Source: Candidatus Omnitrophota bacterium
GTDB taxonomy: Bacteria > Omnitrophota > Gorgyraeia > Gygaellales > Profunditerraquicolaceae
DNA length: 64,000 nucleotides
Assembly: GCA_041650835.1 (NCBI GenBank)
Contig: JBAZKL010000001.1
Span: 637,617 to 701,616, forward strand
Reading direction: 5' to 3'
Every line of letters starts with the position of its first letter. Positions within the stretch are counted from its first letter, which is position 1. Below are positions 19,295-64,000 of the stretch, one piece after another. The notes beneath the pieces are model-generated. The model was given only the letters and a program-made list of their open reading frames with translations, was not told the DNA's origin and did no database searches. Both the position numbers and the translations under genes were made by a program.

Positions 19295-19534
19295 TTAAAC
19301 TTTTGCCAGCTTTGACTGAATGACCTTAACGATCTCATCGATCGTAGAAAGCTTAGAGATCTCTTTGGTGCTTATTTTCGTATTAAAGGTTTTTTCTAAA
19401 GCAATAACTGCTTCGACCATTTCAGTAGAATCAACCCCGATACTTTCCTGCAAAGTCACGCTGTCTTTAAGTTCTTCCGGTTTTACGCGTAACAACTTGA
19501 CTAAAACATCCTTGATCTGAGCTTTTATATCCAT
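19295..19534 (-). CDS. acyl carrier protein
   Basis: 79 aa with the 4'-phosphopantetheine attachment region GVDSTEMVEAV. Confidence 0.75.
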   Translation of the reverse strand: MDIKAQIKDVLVKLLRVKPEELKDSVTLQESIGVDSTEMVEAVIALEKTFNTKISTKEISKLSTIDEIVKVIQSKLAKV

Positions 19535-19928
19535 ACTTATCCCCCTTTAGAGATTACTTATAACAAATGCAGGCCGTATAACACAACTAATTTATAATTT
19601 TAGGTTATGGCTCAGGTTAAGATATTTGTTTGGTTGTTGGGTTTGGTAGTTAGGTTATATAACGTTAATGATAAAGTTTAAAGGCCCTGCCTCACCGGCA
19701 GGTAAATAACAAAGGAAGGTTTAAGACTCAAGGTTTAATCTTAAAATTTATCCTTTATTCTTTGGATTTCCTTTGTTCTTTGAGCTTTAACCTTTGATCT
19801 TAACTTGCTCTACTTGTTTTTAACCAAACCGCTTTACCCAACTACTAAACTAAAATCATTACCCTTGCCTAACTACCCTCTATGGACTATTTGCCTGCCC
19901 CGAGCTTGTCGAGCGGTGTCTTGCAACT

Positions 19929-21389
19929 TTAAATATGAACCTCTCCCTTAGTAGCTCCAGCCTCCCACTTCCCTACTCCTGCCATAACATCCTGGAAACA
20001 GAGCTTTGCCAACGGATCAAAATTGCTCTCCATGATGCGGTTGATGCGGCCGGGTTTTGAGAAAAATTCCCGCATACACCATGAACCCAAACGGCCGAGG
20101 TCATCAATGGTCAAATGATCCGTGGGAATAACAGGATGCAAGAAATCCCACTGGCTGAAATCAACTTTCTTAGGGTCAATCCAGTTCTTCTTTAAAGAGA
20201 TCCGCCACATAGGTGAATTCGGGGCAGGCGTGACGTAACCAACCCAGAGGATATCCGGGTCGACCTGATCTGTGAACTCAAAGCGCTGCTTAATAATAGC
20301 TTCCGTATCATAATCAAAACCCATCATGATATCCGCGACAATGGCAATATCGTTCTTGCGCAGGATCTCAATGGTCTTTTTGATCTGATCAAGGGTGATC
20401 CCCTTGGCGATCCTTTTAAGCTCTGACTGCGTGGTTACTTCAATACCGAAAACTCCCATAAACAGGCCTGTTTCCTTCATCAGCGGCAAGATTGACTCGC
20501 AATTGACCCAATCAATAGCCCGGCCAAGAGAAACCCATTTAATGTCAATTTTCTTTTGTTTCTTTAAATTACAGAATCTTTTCACGCGTTCAGGATCAAC
20601 ATTGAAATTATCATCCTGAATGACCACGACCTTGACCCCGTACTTATTCTGCAGCAAGGCCATTTCTTCAATGACCCGCTCAGGGCTTTTGGCGCGCCAC
20701 TTCAGGAAGTCTGACGGAGAACGCGGGTCAAACTGGTCCCATTCGTAGCAAAAGGTGCACGCTGAAGGGCAGCCCCGTGAAGTAACCATATCCACGAACG
20801 GCTTCCAATACGTATGGCCAACATACTTATCCATCGGGAACAGATCGTATGCCGGCAAAGGCAGTTTATCGAGGTCCTCTAAAAGCGGTTTATGCGGCCC
20901 CATCACGATCTCGCCATCGATCCGCGAAGTAACGCCGCCCACGTCTTTTAAGTCTTTCTTTTTATCGATAGCTTCGATTAAATCCCCGAATGATTCTTCT
21001 TCACCCATGACCACAAAATCAACTGCCGGATTTTCTTCCAGCGTCGGCACCGGCATGGCTGAATACCACAATCCGCCCAAAATTATTTTTGTCCGGGGCA
21101 ATGCCTTTTTGATCCCTGCCGCTGCCTCTTTAAAATGACGCAACACTCCATAGCCTCCGTAGCCATGCAGCTGTTCACCCATCACCACAATATCAGGCTT
21201 CTTGGCCTTGACCTGCTCGATCAGCTGGTCCATAGGGAGCTGGTCTGCTTTCCCGTCGATAACCGAGACATCCTCATATCCTCGTTCCCGCGCGTACGCT
21301 GCCCAGTGCGCGTACAATTGATTCGGCGAACGATGTATCCCATGGGTTGCCCAGGCGCCTACTTTAGGCATGACAAACAGAATTTTCAT
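19929..21389 (-). CDS. B12-binding domain radical SAM protein (class B, probable C-methyltransferase or rearrangement enzyme)
   Basis: N-terminal cobalamin-binding-like domain and the radical SAM CxxxCxxC motif (SRGCPSACTFC). Confidence 0.85.
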   Translation of the reverse strand: MKILFVMPKVGAWATHGIHRSPNQLYAHWAAYARERGYEDVSVIDGKADQLPMDQLIEQVKAKKPDIVVMGEQLHGYGGYGVLRHFKEAAAGIKKALPRTKIILGGLWYSAMPVPTLEENPAVDFVVMGEEESFGDLIEAIDKKKDLKDVGGVTSRIDGEIVMGPHKPLLEDLDKLPLPAYDLFPMDKYVGHTYWKPFVDMVTSRGCPSACTFCYEWDQFDPRSPSDFLKWRAKSPERVIEEMALLQNKYGVKVVVIQDDNFNVDPERVKRFCNLKKQKKIDIKWVSLGRAIDWVNCESILPLMKETGLFMGVFGIEVTTQSELKRIAKGITLDQIKKTIEILRKNDIAIVADIMMGFDYDTEAIIKQRFEFTDQVDPDILWVGYVTPAPNSPMWRISLKKNWIDPKKVDFSQWDFLHPVIPTDHLTIDDLGRLGSWCMREFFSKPGRINRIMESNFDPLAKLCFQDVMAGVGKWEAGATKGEVHI

Positions 21390-36016: not shown

Positions 36017-36360
36017 TCTCCTTTCGCAGAAAGCGAAACACCAACGCAATTCCTCTTAAGCGTTGGGTGTAACAGAAAGGCGCATACCCACACAATTCCA
36101 ATTTGTGTGGGGTGTTCGCAGAAAGCGAAACACGCCGCAGTAAGCGGCGTACTTGCCTATCCAATTAAGGCAAGTGCCAACGCAATTCTGCCGCAGTAAG
36201 CGGCATACCCAGCCACACCAATTAGGCTGGGTGCGATCTGCGTTGGGTGTAACAGAAAGCCGCGTACCGGCGCAATTCCAATCTGCGCCGGGTGCAGGCA
36301 GAAAGCCACACACCCCGCTACACCTATAAAGCGGGGTGCCAATTTGCGCGGGATATTACA
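36017..36360. ncRNA. array of at least 8 tandem stem-loops with variable stems and conserved loop motifs; candidate CsrB/RsmZ-like sRNA on the minus strand, or a structured leader/repeat array
   Basis: Hairpins are caccaacgc/gcgttgggtg, cccacaca/tgtgtggg, cgccgc/gcggcg, cttgcc/ggcaag, gccgc/gcggc, cccagcc/ggctggg, ccggcgc/gcgccgg and ccccgct/agcgggg. Loops are AATTCCAAT-like (AUUGGAAUU on the minus strand). Units recur as taCC[stem]-loop-[stem]GGgtg. The strand is unresolved. Confidence 0.55.
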
Positions 36361-39255: not shown

Positions 39256-39345
39256 CGACAGGGACCTGTCAAAAGGTGGCTGTCACCCTTTGACTTGATT
39301 AAAGACAAAACCATGAAAAAAACACAACGCTTGAATCTTGCAATT

Positions 39346-39396
39346 GAAGAAGCTTGGTGACTGTCACGTTTTGCGTGACTGTCACCAAGCTTCTCG
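39346..39396. repeat. inverted pair of REP-like palindromes (GTGACTGTCACC core)
   Basis: gaagaagcttggtgactgtcacg tttt gcgtgactgtcaccaagcttctc forms a near-perfect 51 nt palindrome immediately upstream of the RAYT gene. A related copy ggtggctgtcaccc lies at 39276-39289. Confidence 0.6.
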
Positions 39397-39411
39397 GTTT
39401 AAAGCATACTT

Positions 39412-40032
39412 ATGCCGCGCACCTCACGTTTTATTGCAACAAACGCTTTCTACCATATCATATCCCGCTCACTAAATGATACCCATATACTACGAGACAA
39501 CGATGATTTTACGCGTTTCTTTATGCTTGTTGATACAGCAAAACAAAAATATCCCATCCTGATATTTCATTATGTCGCAATGAATACTCATTTTCATTTA
39601 GTAGTACAAGCGCCTAATCATGAGATTCTTTCTAAGAATATTTCGCATCTAAAATGGCATTACACATTGTGGATGAGAAAAAAATACGGATGGAAAGGCC
39701 CCCTATGGAAGGAACGATACAAAAGTTTACCTATCGAAAACGAAAATTATCTTTATGCCTGCGGAATGTATATCGCCTATAACCCTGTCCGGGCGGGGGT
39801 ATGCAAAGACCCCGGTGATTACCCTTACAGCAGCTTCCGAAAATACCATAGAGGAATAAATGATCCGTTGATCGATCTCCAAGAAAGCCAGAAAGGTGAC
39901 AGTCACCTTTCTGAACAATGGGATTTCCGTTCGAATTTGCTAAAAAATATTTTCAGCCACTCTTCAGCTATCGGCTCAACCCTTTTTATCGAAAAACTTA
40001 AACAACCCCGAAATGCCTGTCCCCAAAAGTGA
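39412..40032 (+). CDS. REP-associated tyrosine transposase (RAYT; IS200/IS605 Y1 transposase-like)
   Basis: Y1 transposase motifs are present: HTH-like N-terminus, HFHLVV (HuH) and the C-terminal YIAYNPVRAGVCKDPGDYPYSSF. The gene is flanked by REP palindromes. Confidence 0.8.
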   Translation: MPRTSRFIATNAFYHIISRSLNDTHILRDNDDFTRFFMLVDTAKQKYPILIFHYVAMNTHFHLVVQAPNHEILSKNISHLKWHYTLWMRKKYGWKGPLWKERYKSLPIENENYLYACGMYIAYNPVRAGVCKDPGDYPYSSFRKYHRGINDPLIDLQESQKGDSHLSEQWDFRSNLLKNIFSHSSAIGSTLFIEKLKQPRNACPQK

Positions 40033-40060
40033 CTGTCACCAAAAGTGACTGTCACCGTTG
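40028..40060. repeat. two direct REP copies (aaaagtgactgtcacc x2)
   Basis: Tandem 16-mers immediately after the RAYT stop codon. Confidence 0.6.
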
Positions 40061-40065
40061 CCGGG

Positions 40066-41010
40066 CTACTTATTGCGCGCGCAGCGGAAGCCCGTGTATT
40101 CATTGATATAACCCGGGGCGTCCGCTGTGCGTTCTGTAGTACGTAATTGCCCGCTATCGCTAAACCAGAATCCGCCCCGGATAACACGCGAGCCCCCCTT
40201 CAGAGGGCCGACGGGATCTTTATACGCGGCAGCCTGATAATAGCCGGCATCATACCAATCGTTACACCATTCTTGAACGTTACCGGCCATACCTACCGCG
40301 CCATACGGGCTCTTATATTCCTGGAACTTCCAAACCGCCACCGTATAATAAAAACCATCTTTTTTCCGGCTGTAATTTGCCCTGATAATTCCATTGGCAT
40401 GCGGTTCAGCGTTACCCCAGGGGTAGGTGCGGCGGTCAGTCCCCCGCGCGCATTTTTCCCATTCCGCTTCGCTCGGCAGTCGATAGCCATCCCGGGAAAA
40501 ATCGCATATCCCGCTATCCTCGTCATAACACGGCTGCAAGCCCTCCACGCGGCTGCGCCAATTGCAATAATGGATCGCGTCCCACCAGCTGACATTGACT
40601 ACCGGATGGTTATCGAATTGTTTAAAGCTCGGATCATCCCACTCCCCCAGGGGCTTATACCCTGACGCCTTAACAAATTGACGGAACTCACCCACGGTCA
40701 CTTCACAGCGGTCAATTAAGAACGCGCTCAAGAAGACCTCATGCTCCGGCTTTTCATCCCGGTTAACACGGCTATCATTCCGCGGCCCGCCCATGATAAA
40801 CGCGCCCGCCGGCACGCTCACCATGCCTAAACCGGTATTAGGGCAGACATTAACGAAAGGGGGCGAAAAACCCTTGAACGCGAACCATGCGGTCAACAGT
40901 ACCCCGGAGATGGCCGTAAATATAACAATTAAATTTATGAATAATTTACGGGAGACAGTCCTCATCTTATAAGCGCTCTCATATGCCCTTAATTGAATAC
41001 TCCTCAACAA
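40066..41010 (-). CDS. formylglycine-generating enzyme (SUMF1/FGE-sulfatase domain) family protein, membrane anchored
   Basis: FGE-sulfatase signatures (RCEVTVGEFRQFV, GNVQEWCNDWYD, RVIRGGFW) after an N-terminal TM helix. Confidence 0.8.
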   Translation of the reverse strand: MLRSIQLRAYESAYKMRTVSRKLFINLIVIFTAISGVLLTAWFAFKGFSPPFVNVCPNTGLGMVSVPAGAFIMGGPRNDSRVNRDEKPEHEVFLSAFLIDRCEVTVGEFRQFVKASGYKPLGEWDDPSFKQFDNHPVVNVSWWDAIHYCNWRSRVEGLQPCYDEDSGICDFSRDGYRLPSEAEWEKCARGTDRRTYPWGNAEPHANGIIRANYSRKKDGFYYTVAVWKFQEYKSPYGAVGMAGNVQEWCNDWYDAGYYQAAAYKDPVGPLKGGSRVIRGGFWFSDSGQLRTTERTADAPGYINEYTGFRCARNK

Positions 41011-55383: not shown

Positions 55384-56061
55384 TTAAAAATCCCCCCCAT
55401 TATCGGGGCTCCCCACATATTCTTGAGCTCTTTTTTCCCGGGAAGCAATAACAGAGACGCCGGCCTTGAATAAACCCGGCCCCAGGAACCAGGCCTTCTG
55501 CAGCACATTAAAGACTTCAGGGGCCGCCATCGCCTCATAATCAATCTTCAAATACCGCCGTAAAAGCAGCTCCGCGTATTTTTGAGCAAATACTTCATAA
55601 ACTTCCCTGTCACTGAAGACATCCTCCAGGCTGAATTTTGATAAAGCAGGATAATGCTGCAGTACGTCCTGCGCGGCGATCCTGCTTAATCCAAGCGCGC
55701 CATAGGCCTTCTTCCCCGGATGCTCGAAATTCGGAGGATAATTCTTACCGGAAGACTCCAGGTAATTCAAGCCTGCCCTTAAATACCTCCAAAGCCCTTC
55801 GTTCATTTCCATTGACGTCAATACCTTACCCGGCCGGGCGGTCAGCGCGGCATCATTGACCGCGGACGCAGCATGAGTGAACTTCACCCGGGATGCGCCA
55901 AGATGCGGAGAATACGCGTACAATAATACCACTAAAGACAGGATAAAGAATTCACTGGCGATGAAGACATTGTTTTTGGTTTTTATTCCGCTCACGCGCG
56001 GGGCAGGGCCCTTAAGAACCGTCAACGATTTGAATAAAAGCATATCTCCCCCCAAAAACAA
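55384..56061 (-). CDS. hypothetical membrane-anchored protein
   Basis: One N-terminal TM. Weak transglycosylase-like block (AYGALGLSRIAAQDV). Confidence 0.3.
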   Translation of the reverse strand: MFLGGDMLLFKSLTVLKGPAPRVSGIKTKNNVFIASEFFILSLVVLLYAYSPHLGASRVKFTHAASAVNDAALTARPGKVLTSMEMNEGLWRYLRAGLNYLESSGKNYPPNFEHPGKKAYGALGLSRIAAQDVLQHYPALSKFSLEDVFSDREVYEVFAQKYAELLLRRYLKIDYEAMAAPEVFNVLQKAWFLGPGLFKAGVSVIASREKRAQEYVGSPDNGGDF

Positions 56062-56143
56062 AACCCCGGCGTAATCACACCGGGGTCATGAGAAAAGAAA
56101 AAGCCCTTAAAAGGCACTTTCAAGGGCTTGCTTTTCCTCTTTG
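56051..56143. terminator. two adjacent GC-rich hairpins with flanking T/A tracts (candidate bidirectional rho-independent terminators)
   Basis: ccccggcg..caccgggg (56064-56085) is followed on the minus strand by a U-tract. aagccctt..aagggctt (56101-56129) has T-tracts on both sides. Confidence 0.45.
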
Positions 56144-56341
56144 GCAACGCAGCCCCCCGATCGAACGATCGGGGCTGTCGCTTTGCGCCCCAGCATTACT
56201 GCTAGTTAGCCTTTTTCAGTAGGTTCAAACTATATTGAACGAACTACCTGTTCTTATTAAACTATAACATACAATCGGACTTTTTTCCAAAAACAAATCG
56301 ATTTACCGCGGTAGGCGCGCCTGGCGGCGGAAAAACAGGGA

Positions 56342-56831: not shown

Positions 56832-57197
56832 TTAAACCGTATACTTTTTAACGAACTTCAATAATACCTGGACATCAAACGGCTTGATAATATAATCGAC
56901 CGCGCCTAACTCCTGCCCCTGGAACACCGCCTTTGATTCAGCTTTGGCAGTAAGCATAATAACGGGGATATTTTTTGTTTGATCGTCTAATTGCAACTCA
57001 TGTAGGACGCTAAAGCCGTCGCGGTGAGGCATCACCACATCCAAAAGAATAAGGCCCGGGTTGTCTTCGCGAGCCTTACGCAATCCTTCGTCTCCATCAG
57101 AAGCGGTAATTATTTCATAGCCTTGAGCTTCTAATTGCTTTTTAACAAAAAAGATCACATCCGGCTCGTCATCGACAATAAGTATCTTACATTTCAT
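56832..57197 (-). CDS. single-domain CheY-like response regulator receiver
   Basis: KILIVDDEPDVIFFV...LILLDVVMPHRDGFSVL. Confidence 0.8.
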   Translation of the reverse strand: MKCKILIVDDEPDVIFFVKKQLEAQGYEIITASDGDEGLRKAREDNPGLILLDVVMPHRDGFSVLHELQLDDQTKNIPVIMLTAKAESKAVFQGQELGAVDYIIKPFDVQVLLKFVKKYTV

Positions 57198-57468
57198 ATC
57201 GGACCCCGCGATAATTGTACGTTATTATAACGCGGGAGTTTCGCGGGCGCAAGAAAAAGAATTAGATCGCAGAAAACTCAAGAGATCAGAAAATCTAGAA
57301 TAATAAGTTAATTCTAAAGATTAAAGGCTAAATAACAAAGGAAATTCAAAGATTAAAAGTAAAATTCTAAAATGTAACCTTAAGCCTTTAATCTTCCTTT
57401 GTTATTTGAACTTTAACCTTTAGACTTTAAAATTATATCGTTCTTTGGTATCTGGTTTGAAGAAACCC

Positions 57469-57876
57469 CTACTGATTGTTCTTGGGCGGGACCAACAGCT
57501 TTTCCAGCAGCTTCTTGGAAGTATTCGACACATTTTGCTCCAACTGCCTGATCACTATATCTTTCATCTGCGCTTCGCGCCTGAGCGCTTCAAATTCCTG
57601 CCGCAGCTTCTCCTGCTTCAAAGATGCCGTCTCGATGGTCGCGTTGAGCCGCGCGATATGGCCCTTACTTTCCGACAGCCTGTTCCTGTTATGAACTAAT
57701 TCAAAGACCAGGGCCACGCCGATACATATCATCAATAAAACAAGCCATAAAGCCGACGTTCGCCAAAACGTTACTTTCTTGACCAATTCGGTATATTTTG
57801 TTTTATATGCCAAAACCAACTGCTTATAATCAGCTAACGCGTAAACAATACCGGAAGCCTGTTTTTCTTTTGCCAT
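57469..57876 (-). CDS. membrane-anchored coiled-coil protein (FtsB/DivIC-like topology)
   Basis: Single TM followed by a coiled coil. Confidence 0.35.
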   Translation of the reverse strand: MAKEKQASGIVYALADYKQLVLAYKTKYTELVKKVTFWRTSALWLVLLMICIGVALVFELVHNRNRLSESKGHIARLNATIETASLKQEKLRQEFEALRREAQMKDIVIRQLEQNVSNTSKKLLEKLLVPPKNNQ

Positions 57877-62752: not shown

Positions 62753-63982
62753 TCATCGCGCTCCCGCGATAACCGGCAGGGGCTTTTCCACAGCCCTCTG
62801 CCGTGTTATCGTATAAGTTATCGGCCGCATCGGATCACTCCTGAAGTTTAACCGGTCATGCCCGATCGGCGCATAAGCCTTTTTGCTTATAGTGCCGAAA
62901 GAAAATAACGGAAAACTTTTTCCGGTTTGCACCATGTGCTCCTTTTGTTTTGCCAGCGCGGAAGACGCGGTCTCCGGAGGACTTTGAGCCTTAATGGATC
63001 TTATCCTCCAGGCCAATGTTTCAATCTCGGCTAAGAATGCGCTGCGCATAAAAGGCGTAACCAGGATCACCGCGTCAGACGGCAGGTCTTCCATTAATTT
63101 CAGCCGTTTCGCTATTCTTTTTCTTAACAGGATACCGGACGCTTCATCGGTATCCGCGTACGCCGCGTGCGCGCGAAGCTGCTCATAGACCATTTCCGCG
63201 CGCTCCCTGAACTTACGGATGATTTCTTTATCGCGCTCCAAAGAGATCATCTCAACATCCCAATCCCGCATCGCTTCATTCACGCCGCCAAGGAGCGTTT
63301 CGATACCGGTCGACGGGCCGAAGCGCCGCGTAAAATCCCGGGCACTTTCCTGCCACTGCCGGAATAAAGAAGGGACACTGACCAATTCATAATACTCCTC
63401 TTCTTTTATTTCCTGCGGCGCCTTGATCCGGCGTAATGCCTCCTCAAAAACAGCCGAAATATTTTTATGGTCATGCAGCAGGCTCTCCTCAGAGCTGCGG
63501 CGTTCCTTCTCCCGGCAGATAGTATCGATCGCCGGTTCATCCTTAAAACGCCCCTGCCAGGACCGATATATTTCAAAAGGATGGCCGAAGAGCAACCCTT
63601 CAACCCGCTGCTGCAACAAAGGTGTCAACGCGTGGCGTAAACGCCAAAGCCCGCCAAGATAAAGTATCTGTTCCAGCGTCCAATTACGCACGGCTCTCTT
63701 TTGTATAGCCGATAACGCTTTGAACGCGAGCGACGGCATAAGGCAAAGCATCGTATGCAGCTCTTGGCGATGGCGCGTCTGAATATCGACATATTTAAGC
63801 TCATGGCGCAAGCGTTCGTGTTTATTAAGGTAGCGGATATACTCCTCGTGGATAGTCAGAGATGCCGCCATCAAGACCGCGCGGGGATATTCCAGTTCCA
63901 GGCGCTTGCGCGTATCCGGATATTCCTGAAGCGCTATTTTTTCAAGTGTTCTTTTGTCAGCGTTCCCCAAGAGCTGCTGCAT
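62753..63982 (-). CDS. hypothetical protein
   Basis: 409 aa ORF with no motif I recognise. The start is near the window end. Confidence 0.35.
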   Translation of the reverse strand: MQQLLGNADKRTLEKIALQEYPDTRKRLELEYPRAVLMAASLTIHEEYIRYLNKHERLRHELKYVDIQTRHRQELHTMLCLMPSLAFKALSAIQKRAVRNWTLEQILYLGGLWRLRHALTPLLQQRVEGLLFGHPFEIYRSWQGRFKDEPAIDTICREKERRSSEESLLHDHKNISAVFEEALRRIKAPQEIKEEEYYELVSVPSLFRQWQESARDFTRRFGPSTGIETLLGGVNEAMRDWDVEMISLERDKEIIRKFRERAEMVYEQLRAHAAYADTDEASGILLRKRIAKRLKLMEDLPSDAVILVTPFMRSAFLAEIETLAWRIRSIKAQSPPETASSALAKQKEHMVQTGKSFPLFSFGTISKKAYAPIGHDRLNFRSDPMRPITYTITRQRAVEKPLPVIAGAR

Positions 63983-64000
63983 CCAGCTGCGATGATCATC

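Follow-up and report, generated by a model that had tools for sequence, protein, structure and literature searches.

A nested palindromic repeat, probably a MITE/ERIC-like insertion, in the radical SAM-ACP spacer of an Omnitrophota operon

In the 64,000 nt of Candidatus Omnitrophota DNA that we analyzed (hereafter the window), a B12-binding radical SAM (rSAM) gene and an acyl carrier protein (ACP) gene are separated by an odd 394-nt gap within a conserved polyketide/lipid-type operon. Our preferred explanation, to which we assign a probability of about 65%, is that the rSAM-ACP spacer was short ancestrally and received a ~310-nt AT-rich nested palindrome that belongs to a small MITE/ERIC-like family of this Omnitrophota lineage. 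The element is a repeat with a palindromic anatomy, it is absent at orthologous sites, and its copies lack structural covariation. An unusual gap in an operon of an uncultured phylum would thereby be explained as an insertion, and reading it as a repeat guards the region against mis-annotation as a riboswitch or small RNA. In the literature searched we found no description of MITE-like repeats in Omnitrophota.

The rSAM-ACP spacer and the anatomy of copy 1

The first-pass annotation of the window, made from its letters, had described a 394-bp non-coding gap at 19535-19928 between the rSAM and ACP genes. This description was borne out, and both genes lie on the minus strand:

19295-19534 (-): acyl carrier protein (ACP) gene, downstream neighbor of copy 1
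19535-19928 (no strand): rSAM-ACP spacer, 394 nt, of which ~310 nt are repeat element
19929-21389 (-): B12-binding radical SAM gene, upstream neighbor of copy 1

No other intergenic gap between called genes in the 21-kb locus is as long (the runner-up is 152 nt), and the spacer lies in a conserved cluster that includes two FabF-like ketosynthases, a TIGR04076 protein, a cyclase and a cupin, with an SRPBCC cyclase, an MFS transporter and an SDR as further genes. Homologues of the rSAM protein at 73-92% identity carry labels that are nearly all Candidatus Omnitrophota or Omnitrophica. A terminator-like hairpin (19285-19259) comes after the ACP gene, and neither a sigma-70-like nor a terminator-like site was found in the spacer itself. 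We asked whether the GC hairpin at 19686-19702, with CTTTAAACTTTAT behind it, could be an intrinsic terminator, but it fails on the T-run criterion. The element holds no ORF of at least 50 aa; its stop-free stretches reach only 30-48 codons and have no start context.

When the spacer was aligned with its own reverse complement, a match of ~270-280 nt was obtained (19604-19873; 62%, E 5e-13). The individual inverted repeats that had been listed before are all present, namely GGTAGTTAGG/CCTAACTACC (10/10), GTTTGGTAGTTAGGT/ACCCAACTACTAAAC (87%) and the CCTGCC..GGCAGG hairpin at 19686-19702. The boundaries of the element follow from its homology with a second full-length copy on a different contig, L025, which is described below. 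On this basis copy 1 is composed of the following parts:

19571-19877 (no strand): copy 1, full-length nested palindromic element; extent homologous to L025 1240-1530
19604-19663 (no strand): left outer arm, G/T-rich, pairing with the right outer arm; 56/68 identical to its L025 counterpart
19664-19811 (no strand): core, two arms of heptad NNNAAAG units; the part in common with copy 2
19686-19702 (no strand): 17-nt GC-rich mini-hairpin CCTGCC-TCACC-GGCAGG in the left core arm, present in copy 1 only and unique in the window
19703-19782 (no strand): central segment, between the inverted 10-mers AACAAAGGAA (19708-19717) and TTCCTTTGTT (19768-19777), which are 50 nt apart
19812-19877 (no strand): right outer arm, C/A-rich; 61/72 identical to the L025 right outer arm

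The outer arms form an inverted repeat of 43 nt (72%), and GC skew along copy 1 runs from +0.24 to -0.32. The GC content of the element is 34%, versus 48% for the genome, a composition that may be regarded as foreign and that we list in support of an insertion. About 50 nt of the spacer at the rSAM side and ~35 nt at the ACP side are non-homologous to the other full-length copy, and the ribosome-binding site of the ACP gene (AGGGGGA) is located in the latter stretch, outside the homologous element.

A core-only copy in the same window and a full-length copy elsewhere

The second copy in the window is a short form that consists of the core only:

56832-57197 (-): CheY-type receiver gene, downstream neighbor of copy 2
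57299-57440 (no strand): copy 2, core only, with hairpin arms 57310-57366 and 57371-57427
57469-57876 (-): 135-aa coiled-coil/membrane ORF, upstream neighbor of copy 2

Copy 2 is a palindrome with 57-nt arms (75%), and its 10-mers are found at 57334-57343 and 57394-57403. BLASTN matched the two copies at 76% over 118 nt in one orientation (E~1e-20) and at 75% over 102 nt in the opposite one (E~1e-15), because each copy is itself palindromic. The pattern AACAAAGGAA-N{40,60}-TTCCTTTGTT occurs exactly 2 times in the window, versus 0.00 expected.

These comparisons refine what had been noticed earlier. The spacer and the region 57300-57440 do share sequence, but the shared unit is ~120-140 nt rather than ~70 bp; the estimate of ~85 percent identity for the right block was about right. 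The 27-nt insertion formerly proposed for copy 1 is not there: the two copies have an equal 50 nt between the 10-mers in the center, and a 93-nt stretch aligns gap-free. The sole real indel between the copies is the 17-nt GC hairpin at 19686-19702 in the left arm of copy 1. Likewise, the A-B-A'-B' arrangement that made copy 2 seem pseudoknot-like gives way to a simple nested hairpin in the minimum-energy fold; the earlier impression arises because the heptad repeats NNNAAAG within the arms allow alternative registers. Both copies are located immediately 5' of minus-strand genes, as had been stated, yet they are equally 3' of another minus-strand gene. Promoter-like hexamers are present on the gene strand of copy 2, at the right border and inside the left arm, and in DNA this AT-rich they are a weak indication of a promoter. 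Outside the repeat, the CheY leader carries a GC-rich hairpin (CCCGCG...CGCGGGG; 57198-57260, minus strand) just before the start codon, which could occlude the ribosome-binding region.

The third copy was found on L025, an Omnitrophota-like contig from a MAG labeled 'uncultured Planctomycetales', and on the JGI contig L207; these represent one locus and are 99.9% identical. This copy is full length, with 75.6% identity to window positions 19594-19877 over 287 nt, and its homology to copy 1 spans GCAGG (19571) to CCTAACTACC (19877). In the core the identity to copy 1 reaches 90%. The element is found in a 595-nt spacer between a gene for a 1063-aa surface protein and an ATP synthase epsilon/c operon, where a 19-bp terminator-like hairpin that belongs to the upstream gene precedes it and a TG-extended -10 promoter-like site follows. 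Given these two sites, the L025 copy may not be transcribed with either neighbor. In a homology search, the best full-length relatives of the surface protein (57-59% identity) were mostly labeled Omnitrophica, and a comparison of tetranucleotide and GC composition fits L025 in the window genome or in a different genome. A 25-nt direct repeat (L025 1218-1242 and 1546-1570; GTCACATGACACAA(T/A)GACACAAGTC, 24/25) brackets the element, and the left terminus of copy 1 (~19557-19575) has homology with one of the two repeat units; the repeat may be a long duplication made at insertion or a part of the element. Altogether, copy 1 looks like a full-length insertion of some age that has partly decayed, and copy 2 is a core-only member of the family.

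Since assembly errors can make palindromes, we considered whether a metagenome assembler had produced the element as a chimeric or inverted duplication. One short-read contig does end within copy 2: the Logan contig L225, from the same organism, stops at 57350 in the left arm, ~19 nt from the center. A contig break at this position implies that such hairpin repeats fragment assemblies. However, the palindromes are imperfect, with arms that are 72-76% complementary, and they are internal to long contigs. The window is identical to ENA contig ERZ27247363 k141_1328081 and to Logan contigs from SRR8542065, independent assemblies (L001, L227) carry the identical sequence, and the orientation is the same in three assemblies of the window genome. 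With the same bases recovered independently in ENA, Logan, JGI and NCBI assemblies, we find an artefact scarcely credible.

Orthologous sites lack the element

Five relatives, with rSAM proteins that are 88-92% identical, have the same operon and gene order. Their rSAM-ACP spacers measure 84, 117, 92, 86 and 9 nt and are mutually unalignable, and the element is absent from 5/5 of them, with no trace. At the ATP-synthase site it is absent from 2/2 syntenic relatives, in which the spacers are 223 and 372 nt long (595 nt in L025). These presence/absence comparisons apply at the species level or deeper. Because the spacers of relatives are short and free of the element, it looks like an insertion, and its absence from orthologous loci counts against a cis-regulator.

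The MITE-like mobile repeat that the first-pass annotation had offered as one of its explanations is therefore supported by three copies in unrelated contexts, by absence from the relatives at both sites, and by AT-richness. The genes beside the copies, encoding an ACP, a CheY-type receiver and ATP synthase epsilon/c, are unrelated. The annotation had also proposed to give up its reading if only two copies existed and orthologous loci showed no conservation; orthologous loci are indeed without the element, but a third copy exists. Our best reading of the family is a set of low-copy, lineage-restricted palindromic intergenic repeats of the MITE/ERIC-like kind.

A modular family with an inverted center

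The six core arms of the three copies align over a common arm of ~69 nt (nhmmer E 1e-13 to 1e-14). In all six (6/6) the 10-mer AACAAAGGAA is invariant, and the spacing between the two 10-mers is exactly 50 nt in 3/3 copies. AAAG/CTTT recurs in the arms at 7-nt steps, with a density far above the window background of ~8-9 per kb. Two types of arm, alpha and beta, can be distinguished by the 25 nt from the 10-mer to the tip (18-24 of ~25 positions identical within a type versus 14-17 between types), and every copy combines one of each.

In copy 1 and L025 the ~140-nt core is nested in GT-rich/CA-rich outer arms. With the core alone in copy 2 and the core within outer arms in the two long copies, the family is modular. 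The outer arms of copy 1 and L025 are co-oriented, whereas the center matches better when inverted (94/108, versus 80/110 in direct orientation), so that the central ~80 nt is flipped between the two long copies. The inverted arms may have recombined, or template switching may have occurred between them; alternatively, the flip would have resulted from re-insertion of the core. Known MITEs nest in one another, can invert and carry promoter-like sites; Correia elements in particular have been reported to invert, and pneumococcal repeats to insert into one another (MITE review, PMC10969869).

The regularity of the arms could also be explained by protein-binding DNA, in which the 10-mers AACAAAGGAA/TTCCTTTGTT and the AAAG heptads would be operators of a regulator or nucleoid protein, or invertase sites that flip the center. 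Consistent with this are the identical, evenly spaced 10-mers of all six arms, the occurrence of the center in both orientations, the AAAG/CTTT steps well above background density, and the promoter-like hexamers of copy 2. However, a palindrome of 140-310 nt far exceeds the size of an operator, and relatives keep the same genes without these sites. Moreover, the two orientations are seen at different loci and never at one locus, with the three window-genome assemblies in agreement, and no invertase gene was identified next to copy 1 or copy 2 or in the 4.9 kb of L025. We therefore judge this explanation improbable.

Folding without structural covariation

Every copy folds as a long hairpin on either strand. 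A cis-regulatory structured RNA, that is, a riboswitch or attenuator for the downstream gene, had been the other proposal of the first-pass annotation, and an element that is long, stably folding and 5' of same-strand genes would suit such a role. However, Rfam gave no match for the element in the window at the gathering threshold, and a search of both copies at E<=10 gave only miRNA-type, generic hairpin noise (<=25 bits versus cut-offs of 40-211). The palindrome is a DNA-level feature of both strands without a conserved unpaired pocket, the downstream genes are unrelated, and the orthologous leaders do not have the element. The orientation of the center relative to transcription also varies between the copies, and a consensus fold of the three cores contained 0-1 compensatory pairs. 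When we mapped the L025 hairpin onto copy 1, 23 pairs in the outer arms were found to differ, of which 17 were broken, 5 were kept by a one-sided change and 1 was compensatory. With almost no covariation, these pair differences follow the pattern expected if the two arms decay independently, and not that of a conserved RNA structure. A riboswitch or attenuator is thus very improbable, and this reading is close to refuted.

Should transcription of the operon read through copy 1, a long imperfect stem-loop with ~100 predicted pairs would form between rSAM and ACP. Known repeats have such effects, in that transcribed Correia elements are cut by RNase III and ERIC elements by RNase E (PMC10969869). 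By analogy, processing or stabilization of the transcript may take place at the copy 1 stem-loop, as a side effect and not as the reason for the sequence. In a stronger version, the element would be a domesticated RNA, kept for what its stem-loop does in the transcript, for instance as an RNase III/E processing or stabilizing site by which ACP and rSAM expression are uncoupled, or in partial termination. Apart from the precedent of Correia and ERIC elements, this version draws on the co-directional genes that flank 3/3 copies, on folding that is better than that of shuffled sequences (z -2.6, -5.1 and -6.3 for the copy 1 spacer, copy 2 and L025, respectively), and on the better-folding strand being the gene strand in copy 2 and L025. 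For the copy 1 core, however, the better-folding strand is antisense to the operon. In addition, the copy 1 spacer is without a terminator-like site, the L025 copy between its terminator-like and promoter-like sites may be untranscribed with its neighbors, the pair differences between copies are mostly disruptive, and relatives have the same operon without the element. We regard domestication as unlikely, and both this and the protein-binding explanation as less likely than a mobile repeat.

Folding favors the strand on which the beta arm comes first, by 5-9 kcal/mol, in copy 2, in the L025 core and in the two full-length elements, because on this strand the alpha/beta transitions yield G-U pairs; for the copy 1 core by itself the two strands do not differ. 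A conserved asymmetry of this kind in three related copies is only suggestive. A further possibility, which we consider distinctly improbable, is that the element is a strand-specific hairpin module. A dedicated protein, for instance a nuclease or a transposase of the HUH type, would recognize the invariant 14-bp stem AAAUAACAAAGGAA/UUCCUUUGUUAUUU and the conserved alpha/beta G-U/G-T asymmetry in single-stranded DNA or in RNA, and the 50-nt center would be flippable. If true, the element would establish a new class in Omnitrophota, palindromic, modular and invertible, by which the expression of operons is rewired.

Further copies and candidate mobilizing enzymes

The pattern AACAAAGGAA-N{40,60}-TTCCTTTGTT was also scanned over public genome and metagenome contigs, and the loci obtained were screened with BLAST. 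Among the matches listed there were >200 loci, of which only L025 and L207, representing one locus, were homologous to the element; the remaining loci were chance matches or unrelated repeats. At least 3 distinct copies are thus known, two in the 64 kb of the window and one on the other contig. A six-arm nhmmer profile was run over the window and ~110 kb of related Omnitrophota loci, where it detected neither isolated arms nor additional copies. In viral contigs the pattern gave 3 matches, all by chance, and blastn against plasmid and phage collections gave no match to the element. The conserved pseudo-peptide NNKGRFK..GLILKF.LYSLDFLCSL found nothing among 5.8 billion proteins.

Returning to the mobile-repeat reading, the element would spread, or once have spread, as a non-autonomous unit moved in trans by a transposase or recombinase, an enzyme that would recognize the hairpin or the invariant 10-mers. 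With the copies 76-90% identical, there is no sign of recent activity. Neither copy 1 nor copy 2 shows a target-site duplication, and the spacers of the relatives are too diverged to fix the ends. Among the window ORFs examined, none was recognized as part of a parent insertion sequence whose ends match the element. An 82-nt inverted repeat at 40412/42763 was considered as a pair of insertion-sequence ends and rejected, since it represents two divergent paralogous genes (SUMF1/FGE-like, a label given by eye from the translations).

The only transposase-like gene among the window ORFs examined is a RAYT-like Y1 (IS200-type) gene at 39412-40032 (+), with 42.7 bits for Pfam PF01797 (cut-off 23) and 70.7 for the NCBIfam REP-associated tyrosine transposase, just below the cut-off of 80. 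Seven copies of the palindrome GGTGACAGTCACC bracket this ORF within 39275-40056 (14 strand matches versus 0.44 expected), which is a classic RAYT-plus-REP arrangement. The palindrome GGTGACAGTCACC that flanks the RAYT-like gene has no sequence in common with the element, which counts against this gene as its parent. The same palindrome as at the RAYT-like gene is also found in the rSAM-ACP spacer of one relative (L217 1671-1787), as a REPIN-like doublet of GTGACAGTCAC (GGTGACAGTCACAAAAAGCGTGACAGTCACC). Different repeat families have thus colonized one operon gap across Omnitrophota lineages.

Comparison with known repeat families

The element has several of the features by which MITEs are characterized: it is small (~140 or ~310 nt) and non-coding, it has terminal inverted repeats, and it is present or absent at orthologous sites. 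Its closest architectural likeness includes the ERIC/IRU elements of Enterobacteriaceae, 127-bp imperfect palindromes that are likewise non-coding, ~130 nt in size and intergenic, including inside operons. ERIC elements also share with it short and long forms, a low to moderate copy number and variable presence among related genomes, and they can change mRNA fate when transcribed (PMC10969869). The likeness is architectural only, since there is no similarity by eye and the host phylum (Candidatus Omnitrophota) differs. Moreover, the long form of ERIC arises from internal insertions, whereas that of the present element consists of outer arms around the core; the element also has 7-nt AAAG arm units and is far more AT-rich than its host genome.

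Correia elements (CREE/NEMIS) of Neisseria and other MITEs are similarly small, apparently non-autonomous and hairpin-forming, with inverted-repeat ends; they resemble the element in their intergenic position near gene starts and in internal promoter-like hexamers, and they have been reported inverting and nested in other repeats (PMC10969869). Correia elements have, however, defined 26-bp terminal repeats, a TA duplication, an IHF site and >100 copies, whereas no target-site duplication, IHF site or high copy number was demonstrated here. Like the element, REP/REPIN sequences, which are mobilized by RAYT (Y1 HUH) enzymes, are hairpin-forming intergenic repeats, and the window encodes a RAYT-like gene. 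The strand-specific fold advantage that comes from G-T/G-U pairs would be expected of elements handled single-stranded. REP sequences are, however, GC-rich, 20-40 nt long and often GTAG/CGTC-tagged, with a REPIN comprising two REPs, whereas the element is 34% GC and 140-310 nt long. Finally, invertons such as fimS also have a center that is bounded by invariant inverted repeats and occurs in both orientations relative to its surroundings. In contrast to invertons, the orientations of the element are at separate loci, the segment is only 50-80 nt and itself palindromic, and no recombinase was called beside copy 1, beside copy 2 or in the 4.9 kb of L025.

The element thus represents an ordinary type of small repeat, and no major biological question is opened by it. 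Once catalogued, the family may be of use as a strain marker, as an explanation for some assembly breaks and as a small example for studying how palindromes nest and flip.

Other features of the window

Two further repeats were noted. At 36060-36138 and 36240-36318 the window carries a 79-nt direct repeat, 81% identical and 180 nt apart, with internal hairpins, and a 33-nt family ending TTTCGCAGAAAGC occupies three sites (33603, 36002 and 39020); neither gave an Rfam match at the gathering threshold. A c-di-GMP-I riboswitch (Rfam RF01051, 64 bits versus a gathering cut-off of 35) is located at 56140-56221 (-), upstream of the ORF 55384-56061, in a neighborhood with many PilZ and CheY-type receiver genes. 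The window ends in a giant called gene, 39,426 residues long, whose 3' end occupies 62753-64000 (-) and continues into L224 1-4445, and which takes up most of what is left of the 171-kb contig; such giant genes have been reported for Omnitrophota (bioRxiv 10.1101/2023.11.21.568195).
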